From: Escherichia phage vB_EcoM_JB75
Sequence record: MH355584.1
Strand: one strand, 5' to 3'
Length of the DNA stretch: 64,000 nucleotides
Each line of letters starts with the position of its first letter. Positions within the stretch are counted from its first letter, which is position 1. This document shows, one piece after another, positions 41,146-48,572 of this stretch. Made by a program: the position numbers and the translations under genes. The notes under the pieces were generated by a model. The model saw only the letters and a program-made list of their open reading frames with translations, was not told the origin of the DNA and ran no database searches.

Positions 41146-41414
41146 TGTTTGTTGTTCACACTATTTATGAAAATGAAGGTAATACTACGCGTGATTACGG
41201 TCACGTAAATCAATTTTTTAGATGCAATCCAGAATTCCGAGCTCAAAAAGACGAACGAATTTTTAAAAAATGTGTAGAGCAAGGTTTCATTTACGTCAAG
41301 CACTGGATGCAAGGAAATAAAGTTAGAACCACGTACCACAGGTCTTTGACTGAGCTTAATGATGAATTGATTTATAATAGAGCTGTAAACCAAACTCTAA
41401 AGGATGAACAATGA
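41145..41414 (+). CDS. hypothetical protein (89 aa)
   Basis: ORF coupled to gene 30. Confidence 0.5.
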   Translation: MFVVHTIYENEGNTTRDYGHVNQFFRCNPEFRAQKDERIFKKCVEQGFIYVKHWMQGNKVRTTYHRSLTELNDELIYNRAVNQTLKDEQ

Positions 41415-42874
41415 TTCTTAAAATTCTGAACGAAATAGCATCTATTGGTTCAACTAAGCAGAAGCAAGCAATTCTTGAAAAGAATAAAGATAATGAATTG
41501 CTTAAACGAGTATATCGTCTGACTTATTCTCGTGGGTTACAGTATTATATCAAGAAATGGCCTAAACCTGGTATTGCTACCCAGAGTTTTGGAATGTTGA
41601 CTCTTACTGATATGCTTGACTTCATTGAATTCACGTTAGCTACTCGGAAATTGACTGGAAATGCGGCAATTGAAGAATTAATTGGTTATATTACTGACGG
41701 TAAAAAAGATGATGTTGAAGTTTTGCGTCGAGTGATGATGCGAGACCTTGAATGTGGTGCTTCAGTATCTATTGCAAACAAAGTTTGGCCAGGTTTAATT
41801 CCTGAACAACCTCAAATGCTCGCAAGTTCTTATGATGAAAAAGGCATTAATAAGAATATCAAATTTCCAGCCTTTGCCCAGTTAAAAGCTGATGGAGCTC
41901 GGTGCTTTGCCGAAGTCAGAGGTGATGAATTAGATGACGTTCGTCTTTTATCACGAGCTGGTAATGAATATCTAGGATTAGATCTTCTTAAGGAAGAATT
42001 AATCAAAATGACCGCTGAAGCCCGCCAGATTCATCCAGAAGGCGTGTTAATTGATGGCGAATTGGTATACCATGAGCAAGTTGAAAAGGAGCCAGAAGGC
42101 CTAGATTTTCTTTTTGATGCTTATCCTGAAAACAGTAAAGCTAAAGAATTCGCCGAAGTAGCTGAATCACGTACTGCATCTAATGGCATCGCCAATAAAT
42201 CTTTAAAGGGAACCATTTCTGAAAAAGAAGCACAATGCATGAAGTTTCAGGTCTGGGATTATGTACCGTTGGTAGAAATATACGGTCTTCCTGCATTTCG
42301 TTTGAAATATGATGTACGTTTTTCTAAACTAGAACAAATGACATCAGGCTATGATAAAGTAATTTTAATTGAAAACCAGGTAGTAAATAACCTAGACGAA
42401 GCCAAGGTAATTTATAAAAAGTATATTGACCAAGGTCTTGAAGGTATTATTCTCAAAAATATCGATGGATTATGGGAAAATGCTCGTTCAAAAAATCTCT
42501 ATAAATTTAAAGAAGTAATTGATGTTGATTTAAAAATTGTAGGAATTTATCCTCACCGTAAAGACCCTACTAAAGCAGGTGGATTTATTCTTGAGTCAGA
42601 GTGTGGAAAAATTAAAGTAAATGCTGGTTCAGGCTTAAAAGATAAAGCCGGTGTAAAATCGCATGAACTTGACCGTACTCGCATTATGGAAAACCAAAAT
42701 TATTATATTGGAAAAATTCTAGAGTGCGAATGCAACGGTTGGTTAAAATCTGATGGCCGCACTGATTACGTTAAATTATTTCTTCCGATTGCGATTCGTT
42801 TGCGTGAAGATAAAACTAAAGCTAATACATTCGAGGATGTATTTGGTGATTTTCATGAGGTAACTGGTTTATGA
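41411..42874 (+). CDS. 30: ATP-dependent DNA ligase gp30 (487 aa)
   Basis: 487 aa as T4 DNA ligase; N-terminus MILKILNEIASIGSTKQKQAIL; adenylation motif KADGAR. Confidence 0.93.
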   Translation: MILKILNEIASIGSTKQKQAILEKNKDNELLKRVYRLTYSRGLQYYIKKWPKPGIATQSFGMLTLTDMLDFIEFTLATRKLTGNAAIEELIGYITDGKKDDVEVLRRVMMRDLECGASVSIANKVWPGLIPEQPQMLASSYDEKGINKNIKFPAFAQLKADGARCFAEVRGDELDDVRLLSRAGNEYLGLDLLKEELIKMTAEARQIHPEGVLIDGELVYHEQVEKEPEGLDFLFDAYPENSKAKEFAEVAESRTASNGIANKSLKGTISEKEAQCMKFQVWDYVPLVEIYGLPAFRLKYDVRFSKLEQMTSGYDKVILIENQVVNNLDEAKVIYKKYIDQGLEGIILKNIDGLWENARSKNLYKFKEVIDVDLKIVGIYPHRKDPTKAGGFILESECGKIKVNAGSGLKDKAGVKSHELDRTRIMENQNYYIGKILECECNGWLKSDGRTDYVKLFLPIAIRLREDKTKANTFEDVFGDFHEVTGL

Positions 42875-43059
42875 AAGCTTACTTAGAAACAATTGTCATT
42901 GCTCAAAAAGAAGGTGGAGATGTTTCTACTTCTGTATCACAAGTCATTCTCGAATTTGTAGATGCATACGCTTATAATAAATTCACAGAAACATTTGATG
43001 CCTATGAAAAAGGTCCAAAGTTTGAAATATACCGTACTCTCTTACCACTAGATTATTAA
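42871..43059 (+). CDS. hypothetical protein (62 aa)
   Basis: ATGA-coupled to gene 30; followed by a terminator hairpin. Confidence 0.45.
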   Translation: MKAYLETIVIAQKEGGDVSTSVSQVILEFVDAYAYNKFTETFDAYEKGPKFEIYRTLLPLDY

Positions 43060-43080
43060 AGGCCTTCGGGCCTTTAATTT
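43060..43080 (+). terminator. hairpin terminator upstream of alt
   Basis: AGGCCTTCGGGCCT hairpin followed by a T-rich tract. Confidence 0.6.
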
Positions 43081-43108
43081 TATAAATAGAATAAACACTA
43101 GAGAGGCT

Positions 43109-45166
43109 ATGATGGAACTTATTACAGAATTATTTGACGAAGATACTACTCTTCCGATTACAAACTTAAATCCAAAGAAGAAAATACCGCAAATTTTTTC
43201 AGTTCATGTTGATGATGCAATTGAACAACCAGGCTTTCGTTTATGTACCTATACATCTGGAGGTGATACTAATCGCGATTTAAAGATGGGCGATAAAATG
43301 ATGCATATTGTTCCTTTTACATTAACTGCTAAAGGTTCAATTGCTAAATTAAAAGGTCTTGGTCCAAGCCCAATTAATTATATCAATTCAGTTTTTACTG
43401 TTGCGATGCAAACAATGCGTCAGTATAAAATTGATGCCTGTATGCTTCGTATTCTTAAGTCTAAAACCGCTGGTCAAGCTCGACAAATTCAAGTTATTGC
43501 TGATAGACTTATCCGTAGTCGTTCAGGTGGCAGATACGTCCTTCTTAAGGAACTCTGGGATTACGATAAAAAGTATGCATATATTCTTATACATCGCAAA
43601 AATGTATCACTAGAAGACATTCCGGGAGTTCCGGAAATTAGTACTGAGCTCTTTACTAAAGTTGAATCGAAGGTCGGTGATGTTTATATCAATAAAGATA
43701 CTGGAGCTCAAGTAACTAAAAATGAGGCAATTGCAGCATCTATTGCGCAAGAAAATGATAAACGTTCTGACCAAGCTGTAATCGTTAAAGTTAAAATTTC
43801 CCGTAGAGCAATTGCGCAAAGTCAATCATTGGAATCTTCTAGATTTGAAACGCCGATGTTTCAAAAATTTGAGGCTTCAGCAGCAGAATTAAATAAACCT
43901 GCTGACGCTCCTTTAATTTCTGACGCTAATGAATTAACTGTTATTTCTACTTCAGGATTTGCATTAGAGAATGCTCTTAGTAGTGTTACAGCTGGAATGG
44001 CATTCAGAGAAGCTTCTATAATTCCTGAAGATAAAGAATCTGATGTTAATGCAGAAATAAAAAATAAAGCTTTAGAAAGATTACGAAAAGAATCTATTAC
44101 TTCAATAAAAACTTTAGAAACTATTGCTTCTATAGTTGATGATACTTTAGAAAAATATAAAGGTGCTTGGTTAGAAAGAAACATTAACAAGCATTCGCAT
44201 TTAAATCAAGATGCTGCGAATGAGTTAGTACAAAATTCTTGGAATGCAATAAAAACAAAGATTATTCGAAGAGAATTGCGTGGATATGCTCTTACCGCTG
44301 GATGGTCACTACATCCTATAGTCGAAAATAAAGATTCATCTAAATACACACCGGCACAAAAACGCGGAATTCGTGAATACGTAAGTTCAGGATATGTAGA
44401 CATAAATAACGCTCTTTTGGGATTATATAATCCAGATGAGCGTACAAGTATTTTGACAGCATCTGATATAGAAAAAGCTATTGATAATTTAGATTCTGCC
44501 TTTAAAAATGGTGAACGATTACCAAAAGGTATTACTTTGTATCGTTCACAACGAATGTTACCTTCAATATATGAAGCACTGGTAAAAAATCGAGTTTTTT
44601 ATTTTAGAAATTTTGTGTCAACATCATTATATCCAAATATTTTTGGTACCTGGATGACTGATTCATCTGTGGGTGTTTTACCAGACGAAAAGCGTTTAAG
44701 TGTTTCTATTGATAAAACTGATGAAGGACTAGTAAATTCTAGCGATAATTTAGTTGGAATTGGATGGGTTATTACTGGGGCTGATAAAGTCAATGTTGTT
44801 TTACCAGGTGGAAGTTTAGCACCTTCAAATGAAATGGAAGTCATTTTGCCACGTGGATTAATGGTCAAAGTTAATAAAATAACCGATGCATCTTACAATG
44901 ATGGAACAGTTAAAACTAACAACAAGCTTATTCAAGCTGAAGTTATGACCACAGAAGAACTCACCGAATCGGTAATTTATGACGGTGACCGTCTAATGGA
45001 AACCGGCGAAGTAGTTACAATGACAGGTGATATTGAAATAGAAGACAGAGTTGATTTTGCATCATTTGTTTCATCAAATGTTAAACAGAAAGTAGAATCA
45101 TCTCTTGGAATTATTGCGTCTTGTATAGATATTGCAAACATGCCTTACAAGTTCGTTCAAGGATAA
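43109..45166 (+). CDS. alt: Alt-family ADP-ribosyltransferase paralog 1 (685 aa)
   Basis: N-terminus MELITELFD conserved with the adjacent paralog; R-S-E motifs (LYRSQ, FVSTSL, EVILPRG); size close to T4 Alt (682 aa). Confidence 0.8.
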   Translation: MMELITELFDEDTTLPITNLNPKKKIPQIFSVHVDDAIEQPGFRLCTYTSGGDTNRDLKMGDKMMHIVPFTLTAKGSIAKLKGLGPSPINYINSVFTVAMQTMRQYKIDACMLRILKSKTAGQARQIQVIADRLIRSRSGGRYVLLKELWDYDKKYAYILIHRKNVSLEDIPGVPEISTELFTKVESKVGDVYINKDTGAQVTKNEAIAASIAQENDKRSDQAVIVKVKISRRAIAQSQSLESSRFETPMFQKFEASAAELNKPADAPLISDANELTVISTSGFALENALSSVTAGMAFREASIIPEDKESDVNAEIKNKALERLRKESITSIKTLETIASIVDDTLEKYKGAWLERNINKHSHLNQDAANELVQNSWNAIKTKIIRRELRGYALTAGWSLHPIVENKDSSKYTPAQKRGIREYVSSGYVDINNALLGLYNPDERTSILTASDIEKAIDNLDSAFKNGERLPKGITLYRSQRMLPSIYEALVKNRVFYFRNFVSTSLYPNIFGTWMTDSSVGVLPDEKRLSVSIDKTDEGLVNSSDNLVGIGWVITGADKVNVVLPGGSLAPSNEMEVILPRGLMVKVNKITDASYNDGTVKTNNKLIQAEVMTTEELTESVIYDGDRLMETGEVVTMTGDIEIEDRVDFASFVSSNVKQKVESSLGIIASCIDIANMPYKFVQG

Positions 45167-45169
45167 ATC

Positions 45170-47227
45170 ATGGAACTTATTACAGAATTATTTGACGGCG
45201 CTTCGGCGCCGGTTGTTAACTTAAATCCTAAGCATAAAATACCACAAATTTTTGCTATTCAAGCCGGCGAAGAAAGCGTGCTTCCTGGATTTAGATTTTG
45301 TACATACACCTCTGGTGGTGATACGAATAAAAACGTTAAGCCAGGCGATAAAATGATGCATATCGTAATGATAGGTGTTAATGAGAAACTATCATTAGTT
45401 AAGCTTAAAAACTTGGGTGGAAATCCAATTGGTGTCATTAATGCCGTTTTTGATACTGCTCTTCAAACAATGAAACAGTATAAAATCGACGCATGCCTAT
45501 TCCGCGTACTAAAAAGTAAAACAAATGGCGCAGCTCGTCAAATGCAAGTTATTGCTGACCGTTTAGTACGTACTAAAGGAGCAGGTCGATATGTTCTTTT
45601 AAAGGAAATCTGGGACTATGATAAGAAATATGCATATATTATGGTTTACCGTAAAAATGCCAATTTAGAAGACATTCCAGGTGTACCTCCTATTTCAACT
45701 GAGTTATTCACAAAAGTTGAATCAAAGGTCGGTGATGTTTATGTAGACGTTAAAACAGGAAATGCTGTTCCTAAAGCTGTCGCTGTTGCTGCTTCTATTG
45801 CTTTAGAAAATGATAAGCGCACGGACCAAGCTGTTATTCAGAAAACTAAAATCAGTCGTCGATTAGCAGCACAAGCTCAATATTCTACTGTTGATGCTTC
45901 ACTTCAGGGTGATAGCTTTGCTGCCAAGAAATATCAAGAGTTTGAATCTAAAGTTCCGGTATATAAAGCAGAAGGTCCGATGAACTCTGGCGTTATCCAG
46001 ATTGGTTCAAACTTCAGCAAAGGAGCTATCGGTGGTATGAGAAGTGCTTCTCGTTTTAAATCTAACGATTATGAACTAGAAAGCTTCCGAAATCATATTG
46101 CATTGGCCCATGCACGTTTACGTGATCCATCTATCAAGTTGCAGAGCGATATAACATATCAAGGTTCTCAAGAATATTTAAAGAATAAAGAATTCTTTGA
46201 TTATAAAACTGATAAAATTTTAAGCGATCTTGCTGACATTAATATTTCTAATAGCTTTGATGTTATTAAGAAAATTATCAATGATTTGGTTAAAGGTTCT
46301 AAAGCCACGCCAGATGAAAAGACAGCTATTATTCAATTTGTAATGAATGGCATTTATAAATTGATTAATGAATCTGCTGCCCAGGCATATGAATACGCAA
46401 GCACCGAAGTAGCTCCAAAAGGACTGACTCAGGCTGAATCTGATGTAATTGAAGATTATTGTGCAGATTCATATGTTGAAATGAACTCGTTCCTTTTGGG
46501 TAAACCAGATTCTACCCGTGAAGAATACATGGAACGAGCTATTAAGCACATCGAGACGTTAGATTCTGCCTTTGCCAAAGGATCAGTTCTTCCTCCAGGA
46601 ACTACACTTTACCGTGGGCAAGAAGTTACCTTTAAAACTTTGCGTCATAACATTGAAAATAAAATGTTCTATTTCAAGAACTTCGTATCCACATCGCTTA
46701 AACCAAATATCTTCGGTGAGCATGGTAAAAACTATATGGCTCTAGATGATTCTGGCGCAGTATTTTCTGGCGAAGGAGAAGGTTCCGTTGATACAGAAGA
46801 TTTGATGCATATGGGTAGTCATTCTACATATGCTAATGAAGATGCTGAAACTAGCGTGGGTATGGTAATTAAAGGAGCTGAGCGAATCAAAGTTATCGTT
46901 CCAGGTCATTTATCAGGATTTCCATCAGAAGCTGAAGTTATTCTACCACGTGGAATTTTACTGAAGATTAATAAAGTAAGTACGTACTTTATGAAAGAAA
47001 CTGCTTATAACAAGTATCTAATCGAAGGTACAATCGTTCCTCCTTCTGAACAATTAGAAGAATCAGTATATGATGGAGACCATCTAATGGAAACTGGTGA
47101 AGTTCGTCCAATGGCTGGATTTAATCAATTCCTTGTAGAAGAATCAAAAGAAGAGGAAAATGAAGTTTCTCAAATCTTGGCTTCTTTGGTTAACATCAAC
47201 GGAATGTCTAAAAAGTTCAAAATGTAG
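45170..47227 (+). CDS. Alt-family ADP-ribosyltransferase paralog 2 (685 aa)
   Basis: Tandem paralog with the same N-terminal about 200 aa and R-S-E motifs (LYRGQ, FVSTSL, EVILPRG) but a diverged central region. Confidence 0.8.
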   Translation: MELITELFDGASAPVVNLNPKHKIPQIFAIQAGEESVLPGFRFCTYTSGGDTNKNVKPGDKMMHIVMIGVNEKLSLVKLKNLGGNPIGVINAVFDTALQTMKQYKIDACLFRVLKSKTNGAARQMQVIADRLVRTKGAGRYVLLKEIWDYDKKYAYIMVYRKNANLEDIPGVPPISTELFTKVESKVGDVYVDVKTGNAVPKAVAVAASIALENDKRTDQAVIQKTKISRRLAAQAQYSTVDASLQGDSFAAKKYQEFESKVPVYKAEGPMNSGVIQIGSNFSKGAIGGMRSASRFKSNDYELESFRNHIALAHARLRDPSIKLQSDITYQGSQEYLKNKEFFDYKTDKILSDLADINISNSFDVIKKIINDLVKGSKATPDEKTAIIQFVMNGIYKLINESAAQAYEYASTEVAPKGLTQAESDVIEDYCADSYVEMNSFLLGKPDSTREEYMERAIKHIETLDSAFAKGSVLPPGTTLYRGQEVTFKTLRHNIENKMFYFKNFVSTSLKPNIFGEHGKNYMALDDSGAVFSGEGEGSVDTEDLMHMGSHSTYANEDAETSVGMVIKGAERIKVIVPGHLSGFPSEAEVILPRGILLKINKVSTYFMKETAYNKYLIEGTIVPPSEQLEESVYDGDHLMETGEVRPMAGFNQFLVEESKEEENEVSQILASLVNINGMSKKFKM

Positions 47228-47280
47228 TTTACAAGTCCCTCGTGTTGTGTTATAGTAGTCTTACTGACATAACATGAGGA
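47227..47280 (+). promoter_or_regulatory. early promoter cassette (PeSL-like), second copy
   Basis: GTTTAC -35, then the same 37 nt block as 31315-31351, including the SD. Confidence 0.65.
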
Positions 47281-47287
47281 ACACAAA

Positions 47288-47578
47288 ATGAAATCTTCTT
47301 TGCGCTTTTTAGGTCAAGAACTTGTAGTTGAAGGAGTTATTCCTGCTGATAATGCTTTTAATGAAGCAGTTTACGATGAATTTATCAAAATTTTTGGAAC
47401 AGATAAAAAGTTCGGAATTTTTCCTTCTGAAAATTTTTCAAAGCCAGAACAGACTGAAAGTATTTTCCAAGGTGTAGTAACAGGTAAATTTGAGTCAGAA
47501 GCTCCGGTAAAAATTGAAGTTTATATTGAAGACAGTTTAGTTGCTTCAGTTTCTGCTTTCATTTCATTCCGTAAATAA
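47288..47578 (+). CDS. hypothetical protein (96 aa)
   Basis: ORF with SD gaggaacac, preceded by the repeated promoter cassette; followed by a bidirectional terminator. Confidence 0.55.
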   Translation: MKSSLRFLGQELVVEGVIPADNAFNEAVYDEFIKIFGTDKKFGIFPSENFSKPEQTESIFQGVVTGKFESEAPVKIEVYIEDSLVASVSAFISFRK

Positions 47579-47584
47579 AAATAT

Positions 47585-47602
47585 GGGGACCGAAAGGTCC
47601 CC
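47585..47602. terminator. bidirectional terminator between converging transcription units
   Basis: GGGGACCGAAAGGTCCCC hairpin between a + strand ORF and gene 54 (-). Confidence 0.7.
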
Positions 47603-47606
47603 ATTG

Positions 47607-48572
47607 TTATATTGCTCCTAATATTTTACTCTGCGAATTGACAATTCCTGTCATAGTATTAATATTTGAAATGCTTCCTGTAGTTCCCCCTAATCTACTA
47701 AGTCGTGAAAGCGAATTAGATAGTCCAGTAACACCTCCACTATTTCCGAGAACGCTTTGAATACCATTTATAGTAGCAGATTCAAGCCATTCAAGGGCAG
47801 CTTGTCTATCAACTGCTCCAGCCTGCATCACTCTATACGCAAAAGTAACATCAAATGTAGTTATTTGGTTATCTCCATCATATGATAACTCAGGAGCGCT
47901 TACGGACACTGGAATGCATCCAGTGAACATCACCGCAGTATGTGGTAATCCATTGCGAGAATGAAGATTAACCTGAATATCTGCCTCGACATCTTGCGGC
48001 AAAGCACGCAATCCAGTTACTGGGTCTTGAACAGCGTTAACCCAGTCTTGCATTGCACGATAGTTACAAGCTTCTGAATCCATTCTGAATGAAATAACCA
48101 AAGGGTCTAATTCTCTCCCAGTTATACGAATATTAGGAGAATTATAGTTCCAGTCAGTTTCATAGGATAATCTATTCTCTGGCATTTTTACAGAGTATAT
48201 CATCAATCCAGATGAGTTATATGCCACGTTAAAGAAGTCAATTAAATATGTACCAACTGTAAATGAGCCTAATAAACTTTGAACTGTACGTTGACTCATG
48301 GCACCAATAAGATATTTACTAACCCCTGATTTTCTTATCAGTTTTTGTGTGCCAGCTGTAATTAGCGTAGTAATTCCCTGATTAATATCGCCTTGAGTTA
48401 ATCCTAACCAATCTGAATTTAGGCCCAAGTTATTATAAGAAAAGTTGCTAATTGAACTTATCAACGAAGAGCTTTTAGTTGATGGAGTTGTAGCAAAAAC
48501 ACAGCTGAACATATTATTACGTTGGAAATCTGCGTTTATTGCTTGATTATTAAATTCCTCTAAAGAATACAT
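47607..48572 (-). CDS. 54: baseplate tail-tube initiator gp54 (321 aa)
   Basis: Synteny (29-48-54) and length (T4 gp54 320 aa). Confidence 0.8.
   Translation of the reverse strand: MYSLEEFNNQAINADFQRNNMFSCVFATTPSTKSSSLISSISNFSYNNLGLNSDWLGLTQGDINQGITTLITAGTQKLIRKSGVSKYLIGAMSQRTVQSLLGSFTVGTYLIDFFNVAYNSSGLMIYSVKMPENRLSYETDWNYNSPNIRITGRELDPLVISFRMDSEACNYRAMQDWVNAVQDPVTGLRALPQDVEADIQVNLHSRNGLPHTAVMFTGCIPVSVSAPELSYDGDNQITTFDVTFAYRVMQAGAVDRQAALEWLESATINGIQSVLGNSGGVTGLSNSLSRLSRLGGTTGSISNINTMTGIVNSQSKILGAI

Follow-up and report, generated by a model that had tools for sequence, protein, structure and literature searches.

Which of two adjacent alt-like genes in a T4-like phage is the canonical alt, and what is the other one for? 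This question is raised by a 64,000-nt stretch of Escherichia phage vB_EcoM_JB75 (sequence record MH355584.1; from here on, the window, meaning the whole stretch that was analyzed), for which a first-pass annotation had recorded two adjacent plus-strand open reading frames (ORFs) of 685 aa as paralogous ADP-ribosyltransferases (ARTs) of the Alt family. The two ORFs are located exactly at 43109..45166 and 45170..47227, and we refer to them as copy 1 and copy 2. Our analyses make it likely that they encode two Alt-family mono-ADP-ribosyltransferases that share a delivery route and probably have different host targets. The two genes are as follows:

43112..45166, plus strand: copy 1, alt; 684 aa from the second ATG (the mechanical ORF of 685 aa begins at 43109)
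45170..47227, plus strand: copy 2, "Alt2"; 685 aa, a full-length Alt paralog

The pair as such is not new. Hundreds of deposited genomes already carry it in annotated form, either as two Alt-like genes or, in BASEL phage Bas36, as "Alt" and "Alt2", and the alt paralogs of RB49 and 44RR as well as the T4 fragments were pointed out by Nolan et al. in 2006 (PMC1524935). In a literature search, we found no study of the function of the second gene.

Identity of the two copies and the T4 remnant

Using BLASTP, copy 1 and copy 2 align with 41% identity (E = 1e-158). Both match PF03496 (ADPrib_exo_Tox) above the gathering cut-off of 23.4 bits, with 120.9 bits for copy 1 (5.6e-35) and 72.1 bits for copy 2, and both match phrog_802, "Alt-like RNA polymerase ADP-ribosyltransferase", over the full length (9.6e-262 and 2.5e-256, respectively). 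The R-S-E motifs cited in the first-pass annotation are present, and its assignment of the pair to the Alt family thus stands. The MuF (SPP1 gp7-like) N-terminal domain that is found in MuF-fused phage ARTs (PMC9503650) was not detected in these proteins.

Which copy is the canonical alt had been left to an alignment. T4 Alt (NP_049811) and copy 1 are 98% identical (672/684), and, as judged by this alignment, copy 1 is the canonical Alt; given this identity, the biochemistry of T4 Alt can be assumed to carry over to copy 1. T4 Alt (682 aa) is annotated from MELITE..., and the sequence ahead of copy 2 has an ATC where copy 1 has its upstream ATG; the second ATG, at 43112 (MELITE..., 684 aa), is therefore the probable start of copy 1. 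Over 43112-45163, copy 1 differs from T4 Alt, which lies on the minus strand of the T4 locus at L001 5458-7503, by 10 substitutions and a 2-aa insertion. This insertion is located in the C-terminal propeptide (GDIEIEDR vs. GD--IEDR in T4), and T2 alt also has the longer form.

A copy 2-type protein with at least 90% identity is present in ~401 phage records, and carriers of an intact copy 2 include T2, RB6, Yersinia phage phiD1, and Bas36. The second "Alt-like" gene of T2 (YP_010073850) is an ortholog of copy 2 with 98-100% protein identity by region, and so are Bas36 "Alt2" (bas36_0031) and phiD1 g200, which are likewise sited before alt.-3. The first gene of T2 and phiD1 is a T2-type alt, the middle and ART module of which are unlike those of T4-type Alt. 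For copy 2 in the window phage, T2, Bas36, and phiD1, the ratio of nonsynonymous to synonymous substitution rates (dN/dS) is 0.024-0.038 at a dS of 0.10-0.17, which indicates that copy 2 is under strong purifying selection. Neither truncation or frameshift nor relaxed selection, as would mark a pseudogene, was observed for copy 2, which is full length with a dN/dS of ~0.03.

T4 carries alt.-1 and alt.-2 (NP_049810 and NP_049809) at the same locus, and these are annotated as "an old duplication of the first part of gene alt". The T4 DNA after the alt stop is 97% identical to window 45101-45517 and then resumes at window 47208-47622. Thus, T4 is without 1699 bp relative to the window, and the junction lies inside a 9-bp direct repeat:

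45509..45517, plus strand: left 9-bp direct repeat CTAAAAAGT, left end of the T4 deletion
47208..47216, plus strand: right 9-bp direct repeat CTAAAAAGT, right end of the 1699-bp T4 deletion

In addition, one A of the run at 45325-45329 is missing in T4, resulting in a 1-nt frameshift, whereas copy 2 of the window is whole and keeps both the 1699 bp and the base of the A-run. The T4 remnant DNA has 96.8% identity to the first 348 nt of copy 2 vs. 67.4% to copy 1, and copy 2 is a much better match than copy 1 to PHROGs 23015 and 15247, the families derived from alt.-1 and alt.-2. Based on these comparisons of sequence, T4 alt.-1/alt.-2 are the remnant of a full-length second alt gene after a microhomology deletion and not a partial duplication. 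The T4-type deletion junction was found in 91 phage records.

Domains, catalytic core, and candidate substrate differences

The regions of the two proteins, with the identity between copy 1 and copy 2 where it was determined by region and with the ADP-ribosylating turn-turn (ARTT) loops given separately, are as follows:

45170..45883, plus strand: copy 2 N-terminal alpha/beta domain (N-domain), aa 1-238; copy 1 counterpart at 43112-43828; 68% identity
45884..46429, plus strand: copy 2 all-helical middle region, aa ~239-420, with helices from the AlphaFold2 (AF2) model; copy 1 counterpart at 43829 to ~44338; 9% identity
46430..47044, plus strand: copy 2 ART domain, aa ~421-625, with LYR (R482) at 46607-46615 and STS (S507) at 46688-46696; 35% identity between the ART domains
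46928-46954, plus strand: copy 2 ARTT loop LSGFPS and EAEVILPRG, with E587/E589 and the turn-1 aromatic F584
44537..44857, plus strand: copy 1 catalytic core, with LYR (R478) at 44537-44545 and STS (S503) at 44618-44626
44831-44857, plus strand: copy 1 ARTT loop and EMEVILPRG, with E574/E576 and no turn-1 aromatic (SLAPSNEME)
C-terminal tails of copy 1 and copy 2: 42% identity

The first-pass annotation had described the central regions as diverged, which is borne out by 9% identity over 160 aligned positions, that is, they are effectively unalignable. Its description of the N-termini as almost identical overstated their likeness; the 68% identity extends over ~238 aa, the identical run comprises the first 9 residues only, and dS is 1.47. 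On alignment, both copies retain the catalytic Arg, S-T-S, and E-x-E, and the possibility raised beforehand that one of them lacks catalytic residues was not borne out. In a family alignment of 61 diverse representatives, the invariant columns include R482, S507, E587, E589, and the following P-R-G (copy 2 numbering), while conservation across the family is lowest in the middle region and in the insert that separates STS from the ARTT loop.

The AF2 model of copy 2 (pLDDT 81.6, pTM 0.74) consists of an N-terminal alpha/beta domain (~1-200), a long helical region (~200-470), the ART core (~475-622), and a partly disordered tail (after ~622). Using Foldseek against the PDB, this model matched Vis (4xzk; E 1.3e-7, TM 0.65 normalised to the target), and further neighbors were C3 exoenzymes (C3bot), Certhrax, CDTa, and VIP2. 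A search of the PDB with single sequences gave no match for copy 2 and one weak match for copy 1, while the family profile aligned to C3cer (E 5.4e-11) and to Certhrax and placed E587-x-E589 on the ARTT Q-x-E. The R-S-E toxins (C3bot/C3cer, Vis, Certhrax, VIP2, iota Ia, and CDTa) have the ART fold, R, S-T-S, (Q/E)-x-E, and LPR in common with the Alt proteins; the latter have in addition an N-terminal domain of ~240 aa, a helical region of ~180 aa, the STS-ARTT insert, and a cleavable C-terminal tail, and they are delivered from the phage head, whereas the toxins are secreted.

Most family members (Y/F/H), as well as C3cer and Certhrax, the ARTT sequences of which are LTAYPGQYE and MSEYPGQYE, respectively, have an aromatic in ARTT turn 1 at the third position ahead of the first Glu or Gln. 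Copy 2 has F584 at this position (LSGFPSEAE), while there is none in copy 1/T4 Alt (SLAPSNEME) or in T2-type Alt (LGI-ATEAE). The turn-1 aromatic modulates specificity and does not define membership in the R-S-E clade. Copy 2 and T4 gpAlt are alike in length, domain order, R, S-T-S, and E-x-E, ITE-6, and a C-terminal L-x-E; they differ in that overall identity is 41% and F584 of copy 2 is without counterpart in T4 Alt.

T4 Alt modifies RNA polymerase alpha at Arg265 as well as other proteins, and it ADP-ribosylates MazF. In the R-S-E clade, E-x-E goes with arginine as the acceptor, and in C3-like enzymes, the ARTT turn contributes to substrate recognition. The unrelated middle regions together with the different ARTT loops suggest that copy 2 has different substrates. 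Independently of the sequence comparison, this is supported by a 2025 preprint in which one Alt variant could not take the place of another (bioRxiv 10.1101/2025.11.20.689424).

Predicted processing, packaging, and late expression

T4 Alt is a prohead-core protein that is present in ~40 copies and ejected with the DNA (PMC9958956, PMC9026906). During maturation, gp21 cleaves after the Glu of L/I-x-E motifs (PMC9026906), and the cuts in T4 Alt have been mapped by mass spectrometry to ITE-6 and LTE-619, and the mature protein that results measures 68.2 kDa (PMC5694885). The following gp21-type motifs are present in the two copies:

43121..43129, plus strand: copy 1 N-terminal gp21 motif ITE-6
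44960..44968, plus strand: copy 1 C-terminal gp21 motif LTE-619, followed by 65 residues; predicted mature protein 7-619, 68.1 kDa
45179-45187, plus strand: copy 2 N-terminal gp21 motif ITE-6
47054..47062, plus strand: copy 2 C-terminal gp21-type motif LEE-631, followed by a 54-aa C-propeptide; predicted mature protein 7-631, 69.1 kDa

Among the 61 representatives, [LI]xE is present at the N-site column in 55 and at the C-site column in 53, and the P1 Glu of the C-site (E631 in copy 2) is nearly invariant. Removal of the propeptides shifts the predicted isoelectric point from ~6 to 7.3-8.2. The proposal in the first-pass annotation that the N-terminal ~200 aa are a processing part does not agree with T4 Alt, which loses only 6 N-terminal and 63 C-terminal residues; since only the termini are removed, the N-domain is retained in the mature protein (PMC5694885). 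The best-conserved stretch of the C-propeptide, YDGDxLMETGEV (44978-45027 and 47069-47118; 78% DNA identity between the copies), adjoins the gp21 site on its 3' side and holds a further L-x-E (LME). We considered this LME as the C-terminal gp21 site and dropped it, as the cut in T4 was mapped to LTE-619, a short way upstream (PMC5694885). Candidate roles for the stretch are those of a second cleavage site, of a tether, or of a factor that keeps the enzyme inhibited until maturation.

The expression signals of the pair precede copy 1:

43058..43075, plus strand: G+C-rich hairpin AAAGGCCTTCGGGCCTTT between alt.1 and copy 1, read from the sequence
43081..43088, plus strand: T4 late-promoter-type motif TATAAATA, 23 nt before the ATG at 43112

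The hairpin AAAGGCCTTCGGGCCTTT, which a simple terminator scan did not flag, is likely a terminator of upstream early transcripts; it is conserved in T4, T2, Bas36, and phiD1, and a similar hairpin is present in Dhakavirus and Mosigvirus. No late-promoter motif other than TATAAATA was found in the alt region, be it inside the two genes or in the gap that separates them. The TATAAATA motif is also present in T4, T2, Bas36, and phiD1, while Dhakavirus, Mosigvirus, and JSE have CATAAATA instead. The gap between the copy 1 stop and the copy 2 start is 3 nt, AAGGA is located 7 nt before the copy 2 ATG, and the junction CAAGG(A/G)TAAAT(C/A)ATGGAA is common to the window phage and the Dhakaviruses. 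Because the gp21 motifs and the expression signals are conserved, late co-expression of copy 2, its packaging into the head, and its processing by gp21 are likely. Separately, we observed that the surroundings of the two start codons, 43109-43139 and 45167-45197, are identical at 30/31 nt (AT[G/C]ATGGAACTTATTACAGAATTATTTGACG) despite the dS of 1.47 of the N-domain, suggesting either a constraint at the nucleotide level, for example on translation initiation or on the coding of the propeptide, or gene conversion over a very short tract.

The first-pass annotation had proposed two injected transferases. The 3-nt junction behind a single late-promoter motif, the shared N-domain, the gp21 motifs of copy 2, and the purifying selection support this proposal indirectly, whereas ejection itself is a step that we infer. 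As for sources of virion data, the fD1 proteome table is illegible at g190-g202, and the "particle-associated" list of that study also takes in many non-structural enzymes and would in any case say little about packaging; the fPS-65 paper has no proteome in it.

Evolution of the locus and role of the second gene

The window phage is T4-like (Tequatrovirus), and its gene order, which is DNA ligase (gene 30), alt.1, copy 1, copy 2, alt.-3, and then the convergent genes 54, 48, and 29, identifies the locus as the T4 alt locus. The position between gene 30/alt.1 and alt.-3/gene 54 matches that in T4, T2, Bas36, phiD1, Dhakavirus, and Mosigvirus. Several deposited Escherichia phages (vB_EcoM-CHD2BS1 and others) match the 43000-47300 region with 100% identity, and at least 80% of this region is covered in 134 phage records. 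The neighboring genes are as follows:

41411..42874: DNA ligase gene 30, upstream of alt.1
42871..43059, plus strand: alt.1 homolog, 62 aa, from the ORF list and synteny with T4/T2; phrog_1976, E 1.3e-34
47288..47578, plus strand: alt.-3 homolog, 96 aa, from the ORF list and synteny with T4 and T2

The alt.-3 homolog has its own early-type promoter at 47228-47256 (TTTACA-17-TATAGT with TG), and the T4 deletion of copy 2 stops just upstream of the alt.-3 promoter; a bidirectional hairpin at 47583-47604 lies between the alt.-3 homolog and the convergent gene 54. T4 escapes the CmdTAC defence through C-terminal extensions of Alt.-3 (PMC11618068). An RNA family search of 42500-47800 found none, and the minus-strand ORFs within both genes, all of at most 109 aa, were treated as spurious.

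At this locus, the number of Alt genes varies between phages:

Mosigvirus ATK47: one full-length Alt gene
T4: one full-length Alt gene and a remnant
Window phage, T2, Bas36, and phiD1: two full-length Alt genes
Dhakavirus dhabil: two full-length Alt genes
Dhakavirus PSD9 and MX01: three tandem full-length Alt genes
44RR: two Alt genes (ORF187c and alt)
JSE: one alt and a short ART

The tandem alt arrays of 44RR, Dhakavirus, and JSE are at the same locus and in the same tight head-to-tail order; they differ in copy number and in effector modules. The three-gene arrays are those of Shigella phage PSD9 (L006 512-6624) and Escherichia phage MX01 (L007 3787-10047).

In neighbor-joining trees of the single domains, the ART domain and the N-domain gave different groupings. 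In the ART-domain tree, copy 2 falls together with the Dhakavirus gene in last position (54% identity), while copy 1 groups with T2 alt, with dhabil_260, PSD9_7, and MX01_196 (63-64%), and with Mosigvirus Alt (53%). The paralog classes cross genera in this tree, and therefore, the two classes are older than these genera. As placed by these comparisons, copy 2 is a member of a separate, old paralog class that includes the last-position Dhakavirus gene and the T2 gene and is reduced to a remnant in T4. In the N-domain tree, paralogs group by genome, with identities of 68% in the window phage, 64-88% in the Dhakaviruses, and 55% in 44RR, and N-domain identity between ART-orthologs of different genera is only 42-47%. 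We rejected recent gene conversion as the cause of the N-domain similarity between copy 1 and copy 2; only around half of the residues that are identical are encoded by the same codon, and the dS of 1.47 is saturated. An older homogenisation or module swapping of N-domains is possible. In MX01, two Alt paralogs are 88% identical in the N-domain and 33% identical in the ART domain, a pattern that suggests a more recent N-domain homogenisation or module insertion.

T2 alt and T4 Alt are 99-100% identical in the N-domain and 94-97% identical in the tail, while the ART domain of T2 alt is 95% identical to those of Dhakavirus PSD9_7 and MX01_196, with ~80% nucleotide identity over positions 681-1937 (genes compared: T2 alt, L002 3287-5380; PSD9_7, L006 2416-4497; MX01_196, L007 3787-5871). 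As read from these alignments, effector modules are exchanged between genera behind lineage-specific ends. This is akin to the logic of polymorphic toxins and of the T4 internal proteins IPI-III, which are packaged into the head, processed by gp21, injected, and non-essential and in which diverse cargo follows a conserved targeting element (PMC9026906, PMC3012670). IPI-III have an N-terminal targeting peptide of 10-19 residues, whereas Alt has a 6-residue N-propeptide, a C-propeptide of ~60 residues, and a large N-domain that is retained (PMC5694885).

Using Foldseek against predicted viral structures (BFVD), aa 1-240 of copy 2 matched Alt proteins and the N-terminal parts of large uncharacterised proteins from unrelated big myoviruses (E 1e-7 to 4e-4). 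The cargo of the matched proteins includes a zeta-toxin protein (Agrobacterium phage Atu_ph07) as well as deaminase and ParB/Srx proteins (uncultured phages), and some sequence relatives, including metagenomic proteins, have the N-domain without a recognisable ART. The Alt N-domain may be a portable virion-delivery or ejection module, and a role in capsid targeting or ejection is plausible. Besides PF03496, database relatives carry PF26846, which we guess to be the N-terminal domain.

In the mechanism that we propose, both genes would be transcribed late as one unit from TATAAATA at 43081, and copy 2 would be translated from its own AAGGA site, 3 nt past the copy 1 stop. The proteins would enter the prohead core and be trimmed by gp21 at ITE-6 and at LTE-619/LEE-631, as shown for T4 Alt and predicted for copy 2. 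The trimmed, basic enzymes of 68-69 kDa would stay in the head until ejection with the DNA and then carry out NAD+-dependent ADP-ribosylation of arginines, with ejection and activity of copy 2 predicted from its likeness to Alt; arginine is the probable target residue because the E-x-E motif fits arginine specificity. Several points weigh against a pair of injected enzymes with different targets. The differences in the ARTT loop and in the middle region are suggestive and no proof of different substrates. The AF2 model covers copy 2 only. Late-promoter motifs are not over-represented in the window (11 found, 8.5 expected), and with the count at chance level, the weight rests on the position and conservation of TATAAATA. 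Our literature search turned up neither virion proteomics nor expression or enzymological data on copy 2. Finally, an intact copy 2 is missing in T4 and 90 other records and is therefore dispensable, at least on laboratory hosts.

The finding that T4 manages without copy 2, together with the shared family, catalytic residues, and predicted delivery route, would also fit a redundant dosage copy that does the same job as Alt on alpha Arg265 and the side targets and either raises the injected dose or buffers against loss. We consider this unlikely, as the ART domains are 35% and the middle regions 9% identical, the ARTT loop differs, and both classes are kept as separate lineages under purifying selection in Tequatrovirus and Dhakavirus, which is unexpected for redundancy; moreover, Alt variants that are more alike than these two cannot replace one another (bioRxiv 10.1101/2025.11.20.689424). 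Similarly improbable is an active copy 2 transferase that stays out of the head and acts late inside the producing cell instead of being injected. Late expression would also suit such a role, and there is no direct evidence of virion association; however, the N-domain and both gp21 motifs with the near-invariant P1 Glu are conserved and have no obvious use outside the prohead, and other large, effector-like proteins of phages have the N-domain fold as well. That copy 2 is decaying or catalytically dead and heading for the T4 state is highly improbable; T4 and 90 other records have a frameshifted deletion remnant alone, but the 685-aa ORF of copy 2 is intact with every invariant catalytic residue, the dN/dS is 0.024-0.038 at a dS of 0.10-0.17, and ~401 records have a protein of at least 90% identity.

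A role of copy 2 mainly as an anti-defence effector, acting on a component of host immunity and not on the transcription machinery, would refine the proposal of different targets, and we regard it as possible though doubtful. MazF, which T4 Alt modifies, and, by implication, Mokosh I would be precedents for such a target. The presence of one to three gene copies at the locus and of effector modules that cross genera would be in agreement with this role, and the neighboring alt.-3 mutates to escape CmdTAC (PMC11618068). Also, T4 Alt is required to evade Mokosh I, and Bas37 Alt, which in this comparison could be a T2-type Alt or Alt2, is no substitute (preprint, bioRxiv 10.1101/2025.11.20.689424). 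However, no direct link connects copy 2 to any defence system, and the evolutionary pattern would fit host-range tuning of the takeover of transcription or translation, too. More broadly, we tentatively raise the possibility that the locus is a polymorphic array of injected effectors in which a chassis, that is, the lineage-specific N-domain with the two gp21-cleaved propeptides, carries swappable middle-plus-ART modules and in which Alt2 has an anti-defence function with a component of immunity or possibly nucleic acid as its target. We favor the reading that copy 1 and copy 2 are two Alt-family transferases with a shared delivery route and probably different host targets.

To what was known of this locus, our analyses add that copy 1 is the canonical alt and that alt.-1/alt.-2 are the deletion remnant of a widespread gene under selection, together with the gp21-site motifs of copy 2, the difference in the ARTT loop, and the separate histories of the N-domain and the ART domain. 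"Alteration", the first enzymatic act of T-even infection, is known almost wholly from T4, which is a deletion mutant for a second, predicted injected transferase that is apparently carried by ~4/5 of sequenced Tequatroviruses. If the locus is indeed an array of injected effectors, then the loss of Alt2 from T4 left a second injected activity unstudied. The preprint on Mokosh I gives Alt2 a concrete hypothesis, namely, that it is a second injected effector with its own target, and this has a bearing on the host range of therapeutic T4-like phages. The domain mosaic, with lineage-specific ends and a swappable core, suggests that Alt proteins are a natural chassis for protein delivery from the phage head.

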